From contig JAUYBE010000006.1 in assembly GCA_030693235.1 (NCBI GenBank), forward strand, positions 71,189 through 135,188: a stretch of DNA of 64,000 bases, written 5' to 3'. Below, in pieces: positions 5,701 to 13,626 of this stretch. The notes beneath the pieces are model-generated. The model saw nothing but the letters and a program-made list of their open reading frames with translations, was not told where the DNA came from and did not search any database. The DNA comes from a bacterium. Lineage in GTDB: Bacteria > Patescibacteriota > Minisyncoccia > UBA6257 > UBA9933. Every line of letters begins with the position of its first letter. The first letter of the stretch is position 1. The translations under genes were made by a program, and so were the position numbers.

Positions 5701-5741
5701 TTTCTCCAATTTTTTCGCTTTCCCGAAATTGCCGGCGTATC

Positions 5742-5858
5742 ATACTTTCCCGTTCGCCGAAGCAAATAGTATCATCTGATTCAAGCGCTTTTACTTTTCT
5801 GTTCGGAATGGGAAGAAGTAGGGCACGCTTAAGTAAAACACCGGCAAATTCGGGGAAG
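5742..5858 (-). rRNA. rrf: 5S ribosomal RNA
   Basis: The reverse complement contains cccattccgaacagaaaagtaaaagcgc...gatgatactatttgc...gggaaagta, matching the conserved 5S loop B/C and helix IV patterns. It lies just downstream of the 23S 3' end. Ends are approximate. Confidence 0.75.
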
Positions 5859-6196: not shown

Positions 6197-6894
6197 CATA
6201 ATTTCAACTATTACTAATTGATTGGACTATACCACCTTCTTTTTTTATTAAGAAGATCGACGTTTTATAAAATCTTTAAAGATTTTATCTCTCCGACATA
6301 AGTCGAAGAAGTCTCTACGGGGTTAATGTACGCTTTTTTCGTTTCTTAGAATAATTTAAATCCCGAAAACTATCTACTAATTTTGCGAGTTTAATAAAAT
6401 CATTCTTATTTTTTATATTTTCTTTCATATTTAGAATTTTTATCATCAGATTAACTTGTTCTTTTTTAAGAATTACAAATGGTTTTACCATTTTCAAAAA
6501 ATCGCGCAACGCGTCGGTTCTTCCAATTATATATTCAAGAATACCGTCTTTGCGTATTCTTAAATAACCTAAACCAATTAAATTACAAATCTTTTGAAAA
6601 TTAACCCGATCTTTCTGAGATTGAAATAAAACAATATATGGCGATACTTGAAAACCATACCGATAAGTTCGATTTGGTTTTAATCGCACATAAATACTTC
6701 CATCTCCGTCTAAAAATCCTGCGATATATGATTTTTGAATTTGATTAAGCATACACAACTTCCCTCGGTATTATCCTAACATTTGACAGGTTAAAAATCA
6801 ATATTAGGATTTCACCGATATGAGTCGATTTATGCATTTTGACATCACTGTCGAAAGCCGCCGTGTTCGATGGTCATAAAGGGTTCTTTCTTTG
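6197..6894 (-). mobile_element. Group I intron in 23S rRNA, inserted in the ...GGGTTyArAmCGU|CGUGAGACAG context (near E. coli position 2593, the I-CreI-type site). It carries a LAGLIDADG ORF
   Basis: Exon sequence gggttcaaaccgt is interrupted before cgtgagacag. The 5' exon ends in U and the intron ends in G (omega-G). The span is about 698 nt with the ORF inside. Confidence 0.75.
6315..6758 (-). CDS. LAGLIDADG homing endonuclease encoded in the 23S intron
   Basis: 147 aa with the N-terminal motif IAGFLDGDGSI (LAGLIDADG). It sits wholly inside rRNA sequence. Confidence 0.85.
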   Translation of the reverse strand: MCMLNQIQKSYIAGFLDGDGSIYVRLKPNRTYRYGFQVSPYIVLFQSQKDRVNFQKICNLIGLGYLRIRKDGILEYIIGRTDALRDFLKMVKPFVILKKEQVNLMIKILNMKENIKNKNDFIKLAKLVDSFRDLNYSKKRKKRTLTP

Positions 6895-7027
6895 ACGGTT
6901 TGAACCCAGCTCGCGTATCACTTTAATTGGCGAACAGCCAAACGCTTGGGACCTTCTTCAGCCCCGCGCTGTGATGAGCCGACATCGAGGTGCCGAGCGA
7001 GATCGTCGATAAGAACTCTCGGATCTC

Positions 7028-7063
<36 letters not shown>

Positions 7064-8860
7064 ATCTCCGGCCTTTCTATAAAGGACCGTCGGGTCACTA
7101 AGTTCTGCTTTCGCACCGGCGCGGCTTGTCAGCCTTGCCGTTAAGCCGGCTTTTGCCTTTACGCGTCCAGCTCGATTTCCATCCGAGCTAAGCCGACCTT
7201 AATAAACTCCTCCGTTACTCTTTAGGAGGATTCCGCCCCAGAAAAACTGCCCGCCAGACACTGTCCCCGAACGTTTTTGCCGTTCAGGTTAGTTTTTAAA
7301 ATTTAAAAGATGGGTGTTTCATTGTCGGCTCCATCCCGACCGAGATCGAAACTTCAAAGCCTCCCCACTACGCTACGCATTTAAATTCTAAAAACAATAT
7401 CAAGCTACAGTAAAGCTCCCGGGGTCTTTTCGTCCCGCTAGAGGTATCCCGCGTCTTCACGGGAATCGCATTTTCACCGAGCTCCTCGTTGAGACAGTTC
7501 CCCAGTCGTTACACCTTTCGTGCGCTTCGGAACTTACCCGAAAAGGAATTGCGCTACCTTAGAACGATTATAGTTATCGCTGACATTGACGAGGGCTTGA
7601 GTCACTCAGCTGCGCATATTGCTACACGCAACCGGCAACCTTGACCTTCTCGCATCGGTCAGGTGTCACCCCCTATACCTCCTCTTACGAGTTTGCAGGG
7701 AGCTGTGTTTTTGTTAAACAGTCGCTAGGGATACTTTCGCTGCGACCCGAAAAATGCCTTGCGGCATCTCGGGTAGGCCTTATTGCTAACTTACGGCCGC
7801 TTTTTTGCCGAGTTCCTTAACGAGGAATCACTCGTTTCCCTGAGGCTACTCGCCTCATCCACCTGTGTCGGTTTACGGTACGGACCCAACATTTCTAATC
7901 TTAGAGGTTTTTCTCGGAGATTTGCTCGACAAACTTTATCCGGTAAAACCAGACATCGCCTCTACTCTGGGATTTGCTATTAAAAGCATCCCGACAGATT
8001 TTCTAGTCGGGAATCCTCGATCAAGGACGTCAAACCATTAAGACGCTTTATCTACTAAACCTCGTCACCCCATCGAAAAATATTGAGGGACTGGAATATT
8101 AACCAGTTGTCCATTAACTCCGGCTTTCGCCATTGCCTTAGGACCGCCTAACCCTCCGTTGATTTACATTGCGGAGGAAACCTTGGATTTGCGGGAGTCC
8201 GAGTTCTCATCGGACTTGCGGTTACTCATGCCAACATTCTCTCTTCCGTACGCTCCAGTTGCCCTCGCGGGTCAACCTTCAGCGCGTACGAAATGCTCTC
8301 CTACCACCCCCGACGTGAAGTCGGGGATTCGTGTTTTCGGTAATTTGCTTAGCCCCGGTAAATTTTCGGCGCAACCCGCCGTCGAATAGTGAGCTGTTAC
8401 GCACTCTTTAAAGGATGGCTGCCTCTAAGCCAACCTCCTATCTGTTTATGGCGGATAACTGCCTTTAACACTTAGCAAATATTTAGGGACCTTAAACGAC
8501 GATCAAGGGCTGTTTCCCTTTCGAACATGGAGCTTAGCCCCCACGTTCTAACTGCCGAGCCGTGCTTTTCCGTATTCGGAGTTTGACTGAGAAGTCGAGA
8601 TTTCTCCCTTTACTTCTTAACCAGTAGCTCTACCCCAGAAAAGTTTTTACTCGACGCCAGTCCTAAAACTGTTTCGGAGAGAACCAGCTATTACCAGGCT
8701 CGATTAGCTTTTCACTTCTTACCTCAGCTCATCCGAAGATTTTGCACAATCAACCGGTTCGGACCTCCATCCCGCTTTCGCGGGACTTCATCCTGGCCAA
8801 GGCAAGCTCGCCTGGCTTCGGGTCTTACACAAACCGTTAACCTCGCGCTCCGCGCGAGAA

Positions 8861-8998
8861 ATTTCTAATTTCTAATTTCTAATTTCTAAATAAATCCCAA
8901 TTTCCCAAATCCCAATAACCAAATATAATTGTGGTCATTTAGTGCTTGGTCATTGGTCATTATTTAGGTCAATTAGAAATTAGGTCAATTAGGAATTC
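8861..8998 (-). repeat. Palindromic repeat-built expansion, possibly an intervening sequence, inside 23S domain I/II. It is made of tctaatt / aattaga and tggtcat / tgaccaa type repeats
   Basis: About 140 nt of tandem and inverted ctaatt, cccaat and ggtcatt repeats replace a short variable helix between the conserved gggaaaccgagt and gtgtaagacccgaa blocks. The same repeat family occurs at 18287-18398 and 52770-52795. Confidence 0.6.
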
Positions 8999-9186
8999 CT
9001 TGTGCGAAGCACAAGGTGGCGCGCTTTTAACACTCGGTTTCCCTTTGCCTCCGCCCCGTAGGACTTAGACAAACGATTTATATAAACTCGTTGGCTCATT
9101 CTTCAATAGGCACACGGTCGTCCTTGCGGACTTCCGTTCCTTGTAGACATATGGTTTCAGATTCTATTTCATCGGCCTTGCCGGCC

Positions 9187-9225
<39 letters not shown>

Positions 9226-9962
9226 ATCATCAGATGTATTTAGCCTTTCCGGATAGTGCCGGATGATTCCCTCGAAGCATTCTGTCCTCGAGGTACTCAA
9301 GATCAAAGAAAATTGGTTAACTTATTTTCGCCTACGGGATTATCACCCTCTTTGATCAGTCTTTCCAGACTGTTTGGCTAACAAGTTAATTTGTAACCAA
9401 TCTTACTATAAATAGTAAATTTCTCTGTCTTACAACCCCCATCAAAATTTTCTTGCGAAAATTTTGACAGGTTTGGGCTTTTCCCTTTTCGCTCGCCGCT
9501 ACTTGGGGAATAAAATTTTTCTCTTTTCCTCCGCTTACTGAGATGTTTCACTTCAGCGGGTTAGCATCATACTACTTATAAGCATGATAGCGCGGGTTTA
9601 CCGCGCTGGGTTTTCCCATTCGGAAATCTCCGGATCATAGGTTGCTAAGCACCTCCCCGAAGCTTATCGCAGCTACGCCACGTCCTTCATCGCCATCTGA
9701 TGTCAAGGCATCCACCATACGCCCTTATTTTAAACTGTCTCAATCCCTTTCGGGATTTGAGGATTCGAATAATTGTTTTTATTATTTAATTTTCAAGGAA
9801 CTATCAAATCAACCGTTTCAGAAAAATCAAAAACCGCGTTTCGCGCGGCTTTTAAATCAACAAAAATTTTGCTGATTTTTCAGCCACTTTTTGTATTCAT
9901 TAATTTCATCATTTTCATTATTAAGTATAGATGGTGGGAAAAGTATGTCAAGAGCCAAATTT

Positions 9963-11376: not shown

Positions 11377-13626
11377 ATGCCGAGAGTTATAAATTTAAAC
11401 GACTCGTTGGAAAACCTTTACGGCGTAGGTCCGAAATTCGCCGAACGCCTTGGAAAATTCAGCATCAAAACCGTAATGGATTTACTTTGGCATTTTCCTT
11501 TTCGCTACGAGGATTTTTCCAATATCTCCAAAATCGGCGATTTGAAAATCGGACAGCACGCCGTGATTCGCGGCGAAATCGTTTCGGTGAAGATGTGGAA
11601 AAGTTGGAAAAAGAGAATGTTTGTCATTGAGGCCTTGGTGAGCGACGGCAGCGGTTCAATTCGGGCGGTTTGGTTTAACCAGAGATTTTTAATAACAGTC
11701 ATTAAAAAAGGAATAACGGTTAATTTGGCCGGAAAAATAATTGAGACGAAAGGAGGATTAACAATTTCGCATCCGATTCATGAAATAATTACGTCTTTGA
11801 AAAAAGACGCCGGCGATTTAAGGCATACCGGCAGAATTGTGCCGGTGTATCCGGAAACAAGAGGTCTGACTTCAAAAATGCTTCGGTTTCTGATTCAGCC
11901 GCTCTTGAAAAATATCGGTTCTTTGGAAGACCCTTTGCCCGAAGAAATTTTAAAATCATCAAATTTGCCCGATTTAGAAACCAGCCTTCAGGCGATTCAT
12001 TTTCCCGAAACCCTTCGGCAAGCTCAGGCTGCCCAAAAGCGTTTCGCTTTTGAGGATTTATTTTTCTTGCAACTTGTCAATTTTCGCCAGCGTTTGCGTT
12101 TGGCGCGGGAAAAAGCGTATTCCGCGGAAATTGATTTGGAAGAAATAAAAGAAATGCTTAAAAAACTCCCGTTTGAATTGACGCGTTCCCAGAAAAAATC
12201 ATTATGGGAAATTTTACGGGATTTGAAAAAGTCCCATCCGATGAACAGGTTGTTGCAGGGCGATGTCGGTTCCGGAAAAACAATCGTGGCGATTTTAGCC
12301 GCTTTATCGATAATTAAAGACAACAAACAAGTCGCTTTTATGGTTCCGACCGAAGTATTGGCTCAACAGCATTACAACACTTTCAAAAAAATCTTTTCCG
12401 GTTTTAATAAAGGCGCCGGCATTATTACTTCTTCAATCGCGAAAGTTTTTTACGGCGACGGTTTGGAAAGCGACATTAAAAAAAGCGAAATTATCAAAAA
12501 AATAAAGAACGGAGAGATAAAAATCGTATTCGGCACCCATTCGCTTATTCAGAAATACATAAAATTCAGCAGTTTGGCTTTTGCGGTTATTGACGAACAG
12601 CATAGATTTGGCGTTCGCCAACGAGCAGACCTTTTAAAAAATAATAAATCCGGGATTGAGATTCCTCATTTATTATCAATGTCGGCGACGCCGATTCCGC
12701 GCACTTTAACTTTGACGGTTTTCGGCGACTTGGATTTGTCCATTATTGATGAATTGCCCAAAGGCAGAAAAGAGATAATTACTAAAATCGTTAGCCCGTT
12801 AAATCGAGATAAAGCTTACGCGTTTATTCGGGATCAGGTTAAAAAAGGACGGCAGATTTTTGTGATTTGTCCAAGAATAGATGCCGATAGCTCCGCCAAC
12901 CTGCCTGACGGAACCGGTCGTTCGTCCGCTCCAGCGGCGGACGACGACCTTGACTCTCGCGCCACCGACTTCTCGCTATCGCTCGGAGACCAAGCTCGGT
13001 GGCGCTCCGAGACATTCCGCGCGGCAGATTGGCGGAGCGAAATAAAAGCAGTCAAAGAAGAATACGAAAAACTATCGCAAAAAATCTTTCCGGATTTAAA
13101 AGTAGCGATGCTGCATGGTAAAATGAAAGCTAAAGAAAAAACTGAAATAATGAAAAAGTTCAAAGACGGCGAAATTGATATTTTGGTTTCAACCTCGGTG
13201 GTGGAAGTCGGCGTTGACGTGCCGAACGCCACCATTATGATGATTGAAGGTTCTGACAAATTCGGTTTGGCCCAGCTTTATCAGTTTCGGGGCCGGGTGG
13301 GCAGGGGAGAGCATCAATCCTTTTGTTTTCTTTTTACGGATTCTTCTTCGCAAACAACTCGTAAGAGACTTCATTCTTTAATAGAAGCCAAAAACGGTTT
13401 CGAGCTTGCCGAGAAAGATTTGGCTATTCGCGGGCCCGGAGAATTCTTGGGAGAATCGCAAACCGGCATACCCGATTTGGCAATGAAGGCGGTTCAAAAT
13501 CCGGAATTGGTTAAATCTGGTCGCGAAGCCGCGGAAATGATTTTAAAAAAAGACCCTGAACTGAAAAATTATCCCTTGCTCAAAAAACGGTTGGATAGTT
13601 TTGAAAAAAAAGTGCATTTGGAGTAG
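11377..13626 (+). CDS. recG: ATP-dependent DNA helicase RecG, with a GC-rich in-frame insertion of about 150 nt (about 12886-13040)
   Basis: Helicase motifs LLQGDVGSGKT, DEQHRFGV, SATPIPRTL and QFRGRVGRG. The N-terminal wedge domain is present. Confidence 0.9.
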   Translation: MPRVINLNDSLENLYGVGPKFAERLGKFSIKTVMDLLWHFPFRYEDFSNISKIGDLKIGQHAVIRGEIVSVKMWKSWKKRMFVIEALVSDGSGSIRAVWFNQRFLITVIKKGITVNLAGKIIETKGGLTISHPIHEIITSLKKDAGDLRHTGRIVPVYPETRGLTSKMLRFLIQPLLKNIGSLEDPLPEEILKSSNLPDLETSLQAIHFPETLRQAQAAQKRFAFEDLFFLQLVNFRQRLRLAREKAYSAEIDLEEIKEMLKKLPFELTRSQKKSLWEILRDLKKSHPMNRLLQGDVGSGKTIVAILAALSIIKDNKQVAFMVPTEVLAQQHYNTFKKIFSGFNKGAGIITSSIAKVFYGDGLESDIKKSEIIKKIKNGEIKIVFGTHSLIQKYIKFSSLAFAVIDEQHRFGVRQRADLLKNNKSGIEIPHLLSMSATPIPRTLTLTVFGDLDLSIIDELPKGRKEIITKIVSPLNRDKAYAFIRDQVKKGRQIFVICPRIDADSSANLPDGTGRSSAPAADDDLDSRATDFSLSLGDQARWRSETFRAADWRSEIKAVKEEYEKLSQKIFPDLKVAMLHGKMKAKEKTEIMKKFKDGEIDILVSTSVVEVGVDVPNATIMMIEGSDKFGLAQLYQFRGRVGRGEHQSFCFLFTDSSSQTTRKRLHSLIEAKNGFELAEKDLAIRGPGEFLGESQTGIPDLAMKAVQNPELVKSGREAAEMILKKDPELKNYPLLKKRLDSFEKKVHLE

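Follow-up and report, generated by a model that had tools for sequence, protein, structure and literature searches.

The window, by which we mean the whole 64,000-nucleotide stretch of patescibacterial DNA analysed here, contains the helicase gene recG (11377..13626, + strand; 749 amino acids), which carries an in-frame GC-rich segment of about 150 nucleotides with homologous copies in many unrelated genes of other loci. The gene was taken from a list of open reading frames (ORFs), and its assignment follows from RecG homologues with RecG_wedge, DEAD, and Helicase_C Pfam domains and from a match to the Thermotoga maritima RecG structure 1GM5 (E 1e-136). Outside the insert, recG is intact and keeps every helicase motif. 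Across the insert the ORF reads ...FVICPRID ADSSANLPDG...RAADWRSEI KAVKEEYEKL, exactly as quoted in an earlier note made from the letters of this DNA. The GC-rich segment and the internal inverted repeats to which that note had drawn attention are both borne out by computation. In a sliding-window GC plot, positions 12886-13040 contain 66.5% G+C, against a window mean of 39.5% (sd 0.068 for 150-nt windows, z about 4), and the GC maximum of the entire 64 kb (0.68 in 150-nt windows) starts at 12890, the runner-up peak reaching 0.61.

Alignment to RecG, which the earlier note had recommended for finding the boundaries, and to other copies places the element proper at 12890..13038 (149 nt, + strand, with the CTTGACTCTC strand defining its orientation), encoding RecG residues ~505-554. 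These bounds are set by homology to other copies; the covariance-model match described below is wider, 12886-13044. The element runs from the terminal repeat GCTCCGCC... to ...GGCGGAGC, and these termini are also found at the unrelated loci L127, L131, L142, and L183. The window copy has the termini GCTCCGCCAAC.../...ATTGGCGGAGC, and copies of a second flavour, type 2, end in unrelated sequence. The terminal inverted repeats (12890-12913 and 13015-13038) are 24 nt long and 83% complementary, and two inner pairs lie at 12922-29/12937-44 and 12959-68/12996-13005.

Folded as a single strand, the element forms a Y, in which an outer stem closes a three-way junction with two hairpins. The 5' arm of the outer stem P1 is GCTCCGCCAACCTGCCTGACGGAA (12890..12913, + strand), an inverted repeat whose inner part, CTGACGGAAC, represents the "type 1" flavour; the 3' arm is TTCCGCGCGGCAGATTGGCGGAGC (13015..13038, + strand), identified by the inverted repeat, the fold, and covariation. 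The P2 hairpin (12916..12949, + strand) is defined by the fold and exposes the loop CCAGCG at 12931-12936, the letters of which are invariant or nearly so in 52 sequences. It is followed by the junction motif CTTGACTCTC (12949..12958, + strand), translated as L-D-S in RecG and made up of invariant columns in the 52-copy alignment. The compound hairpin P3 (12955..13013, + strand), likewise supported by the fold and invariant columns, contains the internal loop ACCAAGC at 12989-12995 and the 3' motif TCCGAGAC at 13006-13013. The minimum free energy is -89.3 kcal/mol for the + strand (recG sense) and -100 kcal/mol for the - strand (antisense), corresponding to z-scores of -7.5 and -8.3 against dinucleotide shuffles, none of 200 shuffles being as good. 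The three-way junction and the invariant loop motifs, as well as the other in-frame palindrome families in pgk presented further below, go beyond the earlier note.

At the protein level, the window RecG aligns with 1GM5 in two blocks, residues 5-509 with 111-596 and residues 555-704 with 595-744. Because the 1GM5 residues are contiguous across both blocks, ~46-50 residues of the window RecG are extra. In an AlphaFold2 model based on 42 homologues, residues 501-549 have a predicted local distance difference test (pLDDT) score below 50 and no secondary structure, and the predicted disordered stretch sits between a strand at 493-499 (FVICPR) and a helix at 537-570. In the predicted structure, the insert thus comes after the first strand of RecA-like domain 2 and before the next helix. 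The insert peptide is hydrophilic, with S, A, D, R, and G, and the most economical reading of the model is a disordered surface loop between the two RecA-like domains. Tryptic peptides expected from the insert are SSAPAADDDLDSR and ATDFSLSLGDQAR.

The closest named RecG relatives come from metagenome-assembled genomes of Wolfebacteria and Paceibacterota. Among 120 RecG relatives, the linker between CPRI(D/E) and KxVKEEYEKL varies from ~11 to 58 residues, and since its length is variable in all relatives, the site is a tolerant linker throughout the clade. The earlier note had conceded that similar linkers of comparable composition in RecG homologues would undermine its proposal. A variable linker is indeed present in all relatives, but those of P0002 and P0004, 75% and 76% identical RecGs, have ordinary GC contents (0.41 and 0.44). 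The P0004 linker is 84 nt long (44% GC) with a fold z of -0.2, the P0002 linker (41% GC) has a fold z of -2.4, and neither gave a covariance-model match. In two RecGs of greater distance, P0025 and P0014 (65-66% identical), this site is occupied, as in the window, by a GC-enriched segment that shows the Y architecture. Their segments share CCAGCG, CTTGACTCT, and TCCGAGACA with the window copy, and the stems differ yet stay complementary. We also considered the short linkers of the closest relatives as decayed remnants of the element; their alignment was no better than that of shuffles (z 0.67), and this idea was dropped as unsupported. In P0002, a small free-standing GIY-YIG protein of 97 amino acids (L121:9523-9816) lies directly upstream of recG.

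The earlier note had also suggested looking for the segment elsewhere, and such searches revealed a dispersed family. A protein search with the joined ORFs of two RecG elements returned matches outside RecG, in an aminotransferase, an M50 peptidase (RseP), ParB, a release factor, and a ComF-like protein. The aminotransferase match is 81% identical to the window peptide, the ComF-like match arises through a frame of the opposite strand, and the DNA of the non-RecG matches folds like the recG element. Eight aligned members gave 50 consensus pairs, 34 of them with compensatory changes. A conserved-string pattern with 22 fully specified bases then identified 59 metagenome loci, mostly from groundwater, among which L133 looks like a chance match. 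With the covariance model R1, built on the eight members, we found 63 copies at 62 metagenome loci (467,882 bases). In the window, with filters off, R1 detected one copy only, at 12886-13044, with 125.7 bits and an E-value of 7e-26, the calibration having been short, so that E-values are rough and bit scores unaffected. The opposite strand of this copy scored 27.8 bits, and the remaining window matches were generic hairpins of at most 17.6 bits.

Further searches were negative within their reach. No second window copy was found by blastn, nhmmer, or a 3-mismatch search. Two exact-pattern scans of viral contigs yielded no matches, and a phage collection yielded chance matches only. The same was true of the 16-mer GCTCCGCCAAYCTGCC over 596 Gb of genome contigs, a pattern too short for that size. 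A peptide-profile search of 5.8 billion proteins gave one match, a 50-residue profile being unable to reach significance at that size. A literature search of partial coverage returned no description of such elements in Patescibacteria or the wider candidate phyla radiation (CPR).

At least 14 other unrelated genes contain a homologous copy in frame; further copies occupy intergenic DNA or the interior of another copy. NCBIfam names the hosts as RF2 (prfB), FolD, ParB, LepA, NifS/IscS, TsaD, and LigA; the profile match splits cleanly around the insert in six of these seven, and the ParB insert precedes its single match. LeuRS and GT39-like and GT2-like membrane proteins were assigned as hosts by eye. 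Thirty of the 58 full-length copies lie within ORFs of at least 200 amino acids, 17 on the same strand and 13 on the opposite one, some of these ORFs being doubtful as genes (L136, L163, L169, and L154). The other 28 were counted as non-coding, most of them intergenic and a few of uncertain placement. No copy splits a gene, and two candidates with ORFs on both sides turned out to occupy ordinary intergenic spacers. Coding copies have on average 2.73 stop-free frames out of six, compared with 1.15 in shuffles of the same composition; for non-coding copies the values are 1.75 and 0.93. For part of the shared DNA motifs, the LepA copy is translated in frames different from those used in RecG. Since hosts thus read the element in different frames, conservation does not reside in the peptide. 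Altogether, the occurrence of copies in many unrelated genes, in intergenic DNA, and in each other identifies the family as dispersed and evidently mobile, not as a RecG-specific linker.

Several arrangements involve more than one copy. One GT39 gene (L181) contains two copies sharing P1, and head-to-head copies 3-52 nt apart occur at L151:9878-10191 and L149:7634-7998. At six loci, five of them distinct (L136, L147, L153, L156, L159, and L174), the P3b loop of one copy harbours a second copy in the opposite orientation. In six loci, the flanks GTCTCGCAGGCCGAGCGGGCATGGTGCC... were suspected to be P12 of RNase P; Rfam detected no RNase P there, and the flanks are a second, opposite copy enclosing the first. 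The prfB copies (L129:905-1069, L170:2932-3090, and L137:2942-3097) occupy one RF2 site with either flavour of the element. Where the prfB copy is of type 2, the native EAE(K/T)LF is encoded by the 5' outer arm, of which the 3' arm is the reverse complement, as though an inverted duplicate of the host flank had been made. Another copy, L168:2653-2800, lies within ~10 nt of an apparent tRNA 3' end, with the T-loop GGTTCGATTCC just upstream.

The 52 distinct copies share invariant or near-invariant unpaired motifs, namely CCAGCG, CTYGACTCYC, ACCAWGC, and TCCGAGAC. The P2 loop has the consensus C(C/T)CCAGCG, the junction CTYGACTCYC, and the P3 internal loop ACCAWGC with TCCGAGAC on its 3' strand. 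Inner P1 has either of two flavours: the window copy shows CTGACGGAAC/ATTCCGCACGA, the alternative being TTTCGAAAAGAC/CTTTTCTCAA. Outer P1, 15-35 bp long, varies from locus to locus. Because P1 is common to the two copies in the L181 gene and to unrelated loci (the window, L127, L131, and L142/L183), it travels with the element.

The stems, by contrast with the loops, vary freely while retaining complementarity. A plain MAFFT alignment of the 52 copies misaligned P1 and P2, so that RNAalifold recovered P3 only, and the model-based alignment was used instead. In this alignment of 63 copies, 92.3% of cells are in standard pairs, compared with 62.9% after shuffling and 34-46% when the 3' partners are slid by 1-3 columns; compensated cells number 937, compared with 271 and 184-252, respectively. 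These counts come from an alignment fitted to the model, which favours the structure, and the margin is far beyond that effect. Double-sided changes affect 46 of the 50 pairs, including 20 of 21 in helices 1-2 (P1) and all 13 in helices 3-4 (P2), and helices 5-8 (P3) covary as well. Mismatches of the transition type are asymmetric, with A.C in 90 and G.U in 32 cells when one conserved U.G pair is excluded, and with 50 A.C and 8 G.U in outer P1. Wobble is therefore tolerated on the strand complementary to CTTGACTCTC. As the asymmetry has the same direction in same-strand, opposite-strand, and intergenic copies, the element itself, not host transcription, sets the polarity of the folded form. 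The favoured strand of the window copy is antisense to recG and also has the lower folding energy.

Pairs of related copies illustrate how the element changes in place and moves. Between the recG orthologues at L125 and L126, the element is ~87% identical and the coding flanks 72-77%, and the element pairs comprise five compensated, two wobble, and two broken ones. The prfB copies of L170 and L129 differ by seven compensated, three wobble, and nine broken pairs. L142 and L183 have 48 of 49 pairs the same, and their flanks do not align. As judged from the sequences, these comparisons speak for both recent movement and some maintenance of pairing. Selection, conversion by other copies, or template switching within palindromes could each account for the maintenance.

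Taken together, the segment in recG is probably one copy of a dispersed, non-autonomous, selfish mobile element of Patescibacteria, similar in kind to the Rickettsia palindromic elements (RPEs). The earlier note had thought of a foreign element or an intein-less mini-insertion preserving the frame. The in-frame insertion stands, as a dispersed element and not an intein; the attribute "foreign" holds only with reservation, as the family appears native to this bacterial lineage and not derived from a GC-rich donor. We propose that the element would spread through a folded single-stranded intermediate, whose invariant loops may be recognised in trans by an enzyme encoded elsewhere. A folded intermediate with loop recognition would explain why the stems change freely but stay complementary. 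Insertions in essential genes presumably survive because the element is poor in stops and because in-frame copies in tolerant surface loops are selected, the insert then being translated as a hydrophilic, disordered peptide. The element would be selfish and of no benefit to RecG. Hairpin loops may serve as its targets, for which the nesting in P3b and the inverted outer arms in prfB are two hints. More tentatively, and with considerable doubt on our part, the family might constitute a new class of mobile structured nucleic acid, a fixed-polarity three-way-junction RNA or single-stranded DNA, the loops of which (CCAGCG, CUUGACUCUC, ACCAWGC, and UCCGAGAC, or their complements) would form a catalytic or protein-recognition core. 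Its movement would target hairpin loops, as suggested by the P3b nesting and by prfB outer stems resembling an inverted host flank.

Several points weigh against a selfish mobile element. We infer translation of the insert from frame preservation only. The window, which covers only part of this genome, holds a single copy in 64 kb. Motifs that are invariant in several loops, strong covariation, and an element better conserved in place than its coding flanks typify a functional RNA more than a selfish insert in decay. Selection is not the only possible source of the compensated changes, which intra-strand template switching in palindromes could likewise produce. Inspection of the flanks of the 63 copies disclosed no consistent direct repeat indicative of a target-site duplication, the exact ends not being anchored by any empty site. 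Clustering of 920 ORFs around the copies revealed no recurrent transposase-like neighbour, and no search was made for a trans-acting enzyme elsewhere in the genome.

Some of these points would suit a functional structured nucleic acid, portable and used by the host, such as a cis-acting RNA that controls how stable an mRNA is or how it is processed, a gene for a small antisense RNA, or a folded site in single-stranded DNA for a recombinase or replication factor. Long perfect stems are substrates of RNase III. Invariant unpaired motifs next to freely covarying stems, an element more conserved than the coding flanks between orthologous recG copies, a polarity of wobble tolerance that stays fixed whatever the direction of the host gene, and a GC content of 66% kept in a 39.5% GC genome would all be expected of such a function. 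However, the copies show no orientation preference (17 same, 13 opposite), and host transcripts therefore carry the "wrong" strand about half the time. Moreover, the hosts are unrelated in function, copies nest within each other, and the two closest RecG relatives whose DNA was read lack the element. Nor does it match an Rfam family: with Rfam 15, no credible match was obtained for the window copy at E up to 10, nothing reached the gathering score in eight loci, and nothing appeared at E up to 0.5 in six other loci. We thus regard a host function as unlikely. An intervening sequence removed from the RNA, either intron-like or by RNase III excision and re-ligation, so that the peptide is never made, strikes us as very improbable. 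The long outer stem would bring the flanks together, Patescibacteria are known for rRNA and tRNA introns (PMC13011429), and a LAGLIDADG ORF adjoins the 23S gene in the window. Yet all intragenic copies keep the host frame open and none splits its gene, stops are depleted beyond composition, and both frame-keeping and stop depletion would be needless if the element were spliced. Furthermore, it has no likeness to group I, group II, or other Rfam ribozymes, and both orientations occur within genes.

Two simpler explanations have practically been settled by the data. A lineage-specific, fast-evolving RecG linker with accidental GC content and hairpins, or an assembly chimera, would agree with the variable-length linker found at this site in all relatives, but it is refuted by the homologous copies in many other genes from many independent assemblies, leaving it hardly any probability. 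A fold z of -7.5, the GC maximum of the window, and the model score of 125.7 bits do not fit a mere linker either. Helicases belong to the gene classes that often host inteins, and an in-frame insertion in a conserved helicase could call to mind a mini-intein or an intein remnant. The sequence already refutes this, and its probability is essentially nil: the insert has only ~50 residues, compared with at least ~130 for a Hint fold, its junctions (D-A-D-S... and ...W-R-S-E-I) lack a Cys/Ser start and a His-Asn plus Cys/Ser/Thr end, and it is predicted to be disordered. In addition, the nucleic-acid fold is conserved and the reading frame differs between hosts, as for LepA and RecG.

Other in-frame inserts were noticed in the window and in related proteins. 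The pgk gene (52548..53927, + strand) carries two in-frame structured inserts of other families. The insert at 53748-53846 is a long hairpin (z -7.3) encoding ATRNYAEKHAELRGKSLRQSASSLRKSAL; this hairpin family is also present near the C-terminus of the aminotransferase P0121, and many RecG relatives have "QTNTD...SPRKSALL" linkers that it resembles. The insert at 52868-52960 is a small Y fold (z -6.4) with the outer stem GTCATTGCGAG/CTCGCAATGAC and the peptide SLRGVPQSGTTKQSNNSTEIASPSARNDTE. Positions 53095-53131 (PVRNSPARRDAISNG, z -2) may be a third short hairpin. The RecG homologues P0011, P0012, P0017, P0032, P0063, and others contain, after residue 423 or 139 (window numbering), an in-frame insertion of ~105-115 residues, a nuclease-like domain of the GxxExxY/PDDEXK_3 type (PF13366) that starts with TQTDTQTNAD-like repeats. 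GatB on the contig of the aminotransferase copy (L127:1-450) holds the same PDDEXK_3 domain as an insert. The PDDEXK_3 domain may be a further mobile unit of the in-frame kind, with a link to the "QTNTD" hairpin family. Elsewhere in the window, a 147-amino-acid ORF with the LAGLIDADG-type motif IAGFLDGDGSI (6315..6758, - strand) lies directly past the 3' end of the 23S rRNA gene (6788-9735, - strand) and before the 5S gene (5730-5845, - strand), in a 23S-5S spacer of ~940 nt.

Selfish palindromes writing themselves into proteins have so far been a curiosity nearly confined to Rickettsia. An unrelated and structurally elaborate family in Patescibacteria would mean that the phenomenon of protein-invading palindromes recurs in reduced genomes, here with core replication, repair, and translation genes as hosts (RecG, LigA, RF2, LeuRS, LepA, and TsaD). 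It could explain part of the odd "extra loops" and of the linker-length variation in CPR proteins, and it would caution annotators and structure predictors against taking such GC-rich disordered inserts for lineage-specific functional domains when they may be mobile DNA. From the large covarying data set, one could derive the recognition structure and perhaps also the mobilising enzyme.

Compared with known systems, the element shares with inteins the in-frame insertion in a conserved enzyme and the patchy occurrence among orthologues, but it differs in lacking splicing residues, in having 50 disordered residues, and in being conserved at the nucleic-acid level. Like the rRNA intervening sequences and introns of Patescibacteria, it is an extra structured segment with a closing stem, inserted into genes that are conserved, and the lineage is the same. 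The intervening sequences and introns are cut out of the RNA, however, whereas the frame of the recG element is always kept, implying translation, and the element bears no resemblance to the group I or II introns of Rfam. Integron attC sites are conserved in structure and not in sequence, acting as single-strand folds of defined polarity (60-140 nt) with stems that are almost purely Watson-Crick. The recG element similarly combines conserved structure, variable sequence, and a single-strand fold of defined polarity. Unlike attC, it has no RYYYAAC/GTTRRRY core sites, no integrase nearby, and no cassette context, it lies within coding sequences, and its loop sequence is far more conserved. With MITEs, the miniature inverted-repeat transposable elements (Correia/NEMIS, ERIC, BOX, RUP, Nezha, and others), it has in common the small size, the lack of a transposase, the terminal inverted repeats, and the dispersal, sometimes intragenic and in frame. 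In contrast to MITEs, the recG element showed no consistent target-site duplication and has no known parent insertion sequence. Copies within a MITE family usually have their primary sequence in common, whereas what separates copies of the recG element is mainly compensated change in the stems, the loops staying fixed.

RPEs are palindromes of ~150 bp, found in frame at scattered sites in unrelated genes of Rickettsia, where several families coexist (Ogata et al. 2000, 2002, as summarised in PMC10969869). The recG element, too, is a palindrome of ~150 bp, and it is predicted to fold stably. In a bacterium with a small genome, it is scattered in frame over unrelated housekeeping genes, to whose products it adds a tolerated peptide, and several families share one genome, here the recG element and the two other kinds in pgk. 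It differs in belonging to the phylum Patescibacteria, in being strongly GC-rich in an AT-rich genome, in forming a three-way junction with invariant loop motifs instead of a simple palindrome, in encoding a peptide that is not conserved because the frame shifts between hosts, and in the nesting of its copies. Homology to RPE families 1-10 is unlikely, and the likeness is one of class, by behaviour. What characterises the RPE-like class is found here in the short stable palindrome, the dispersal, and the frame kept in an intact host, and, for RecG only and by pLDDT prediction, in the tolerant surface loop. We therefore file the element under in-frame palindromic mobile elements, where its invariant multi-loop core and fixed polarity go beyond the usual MITE-like repeats.

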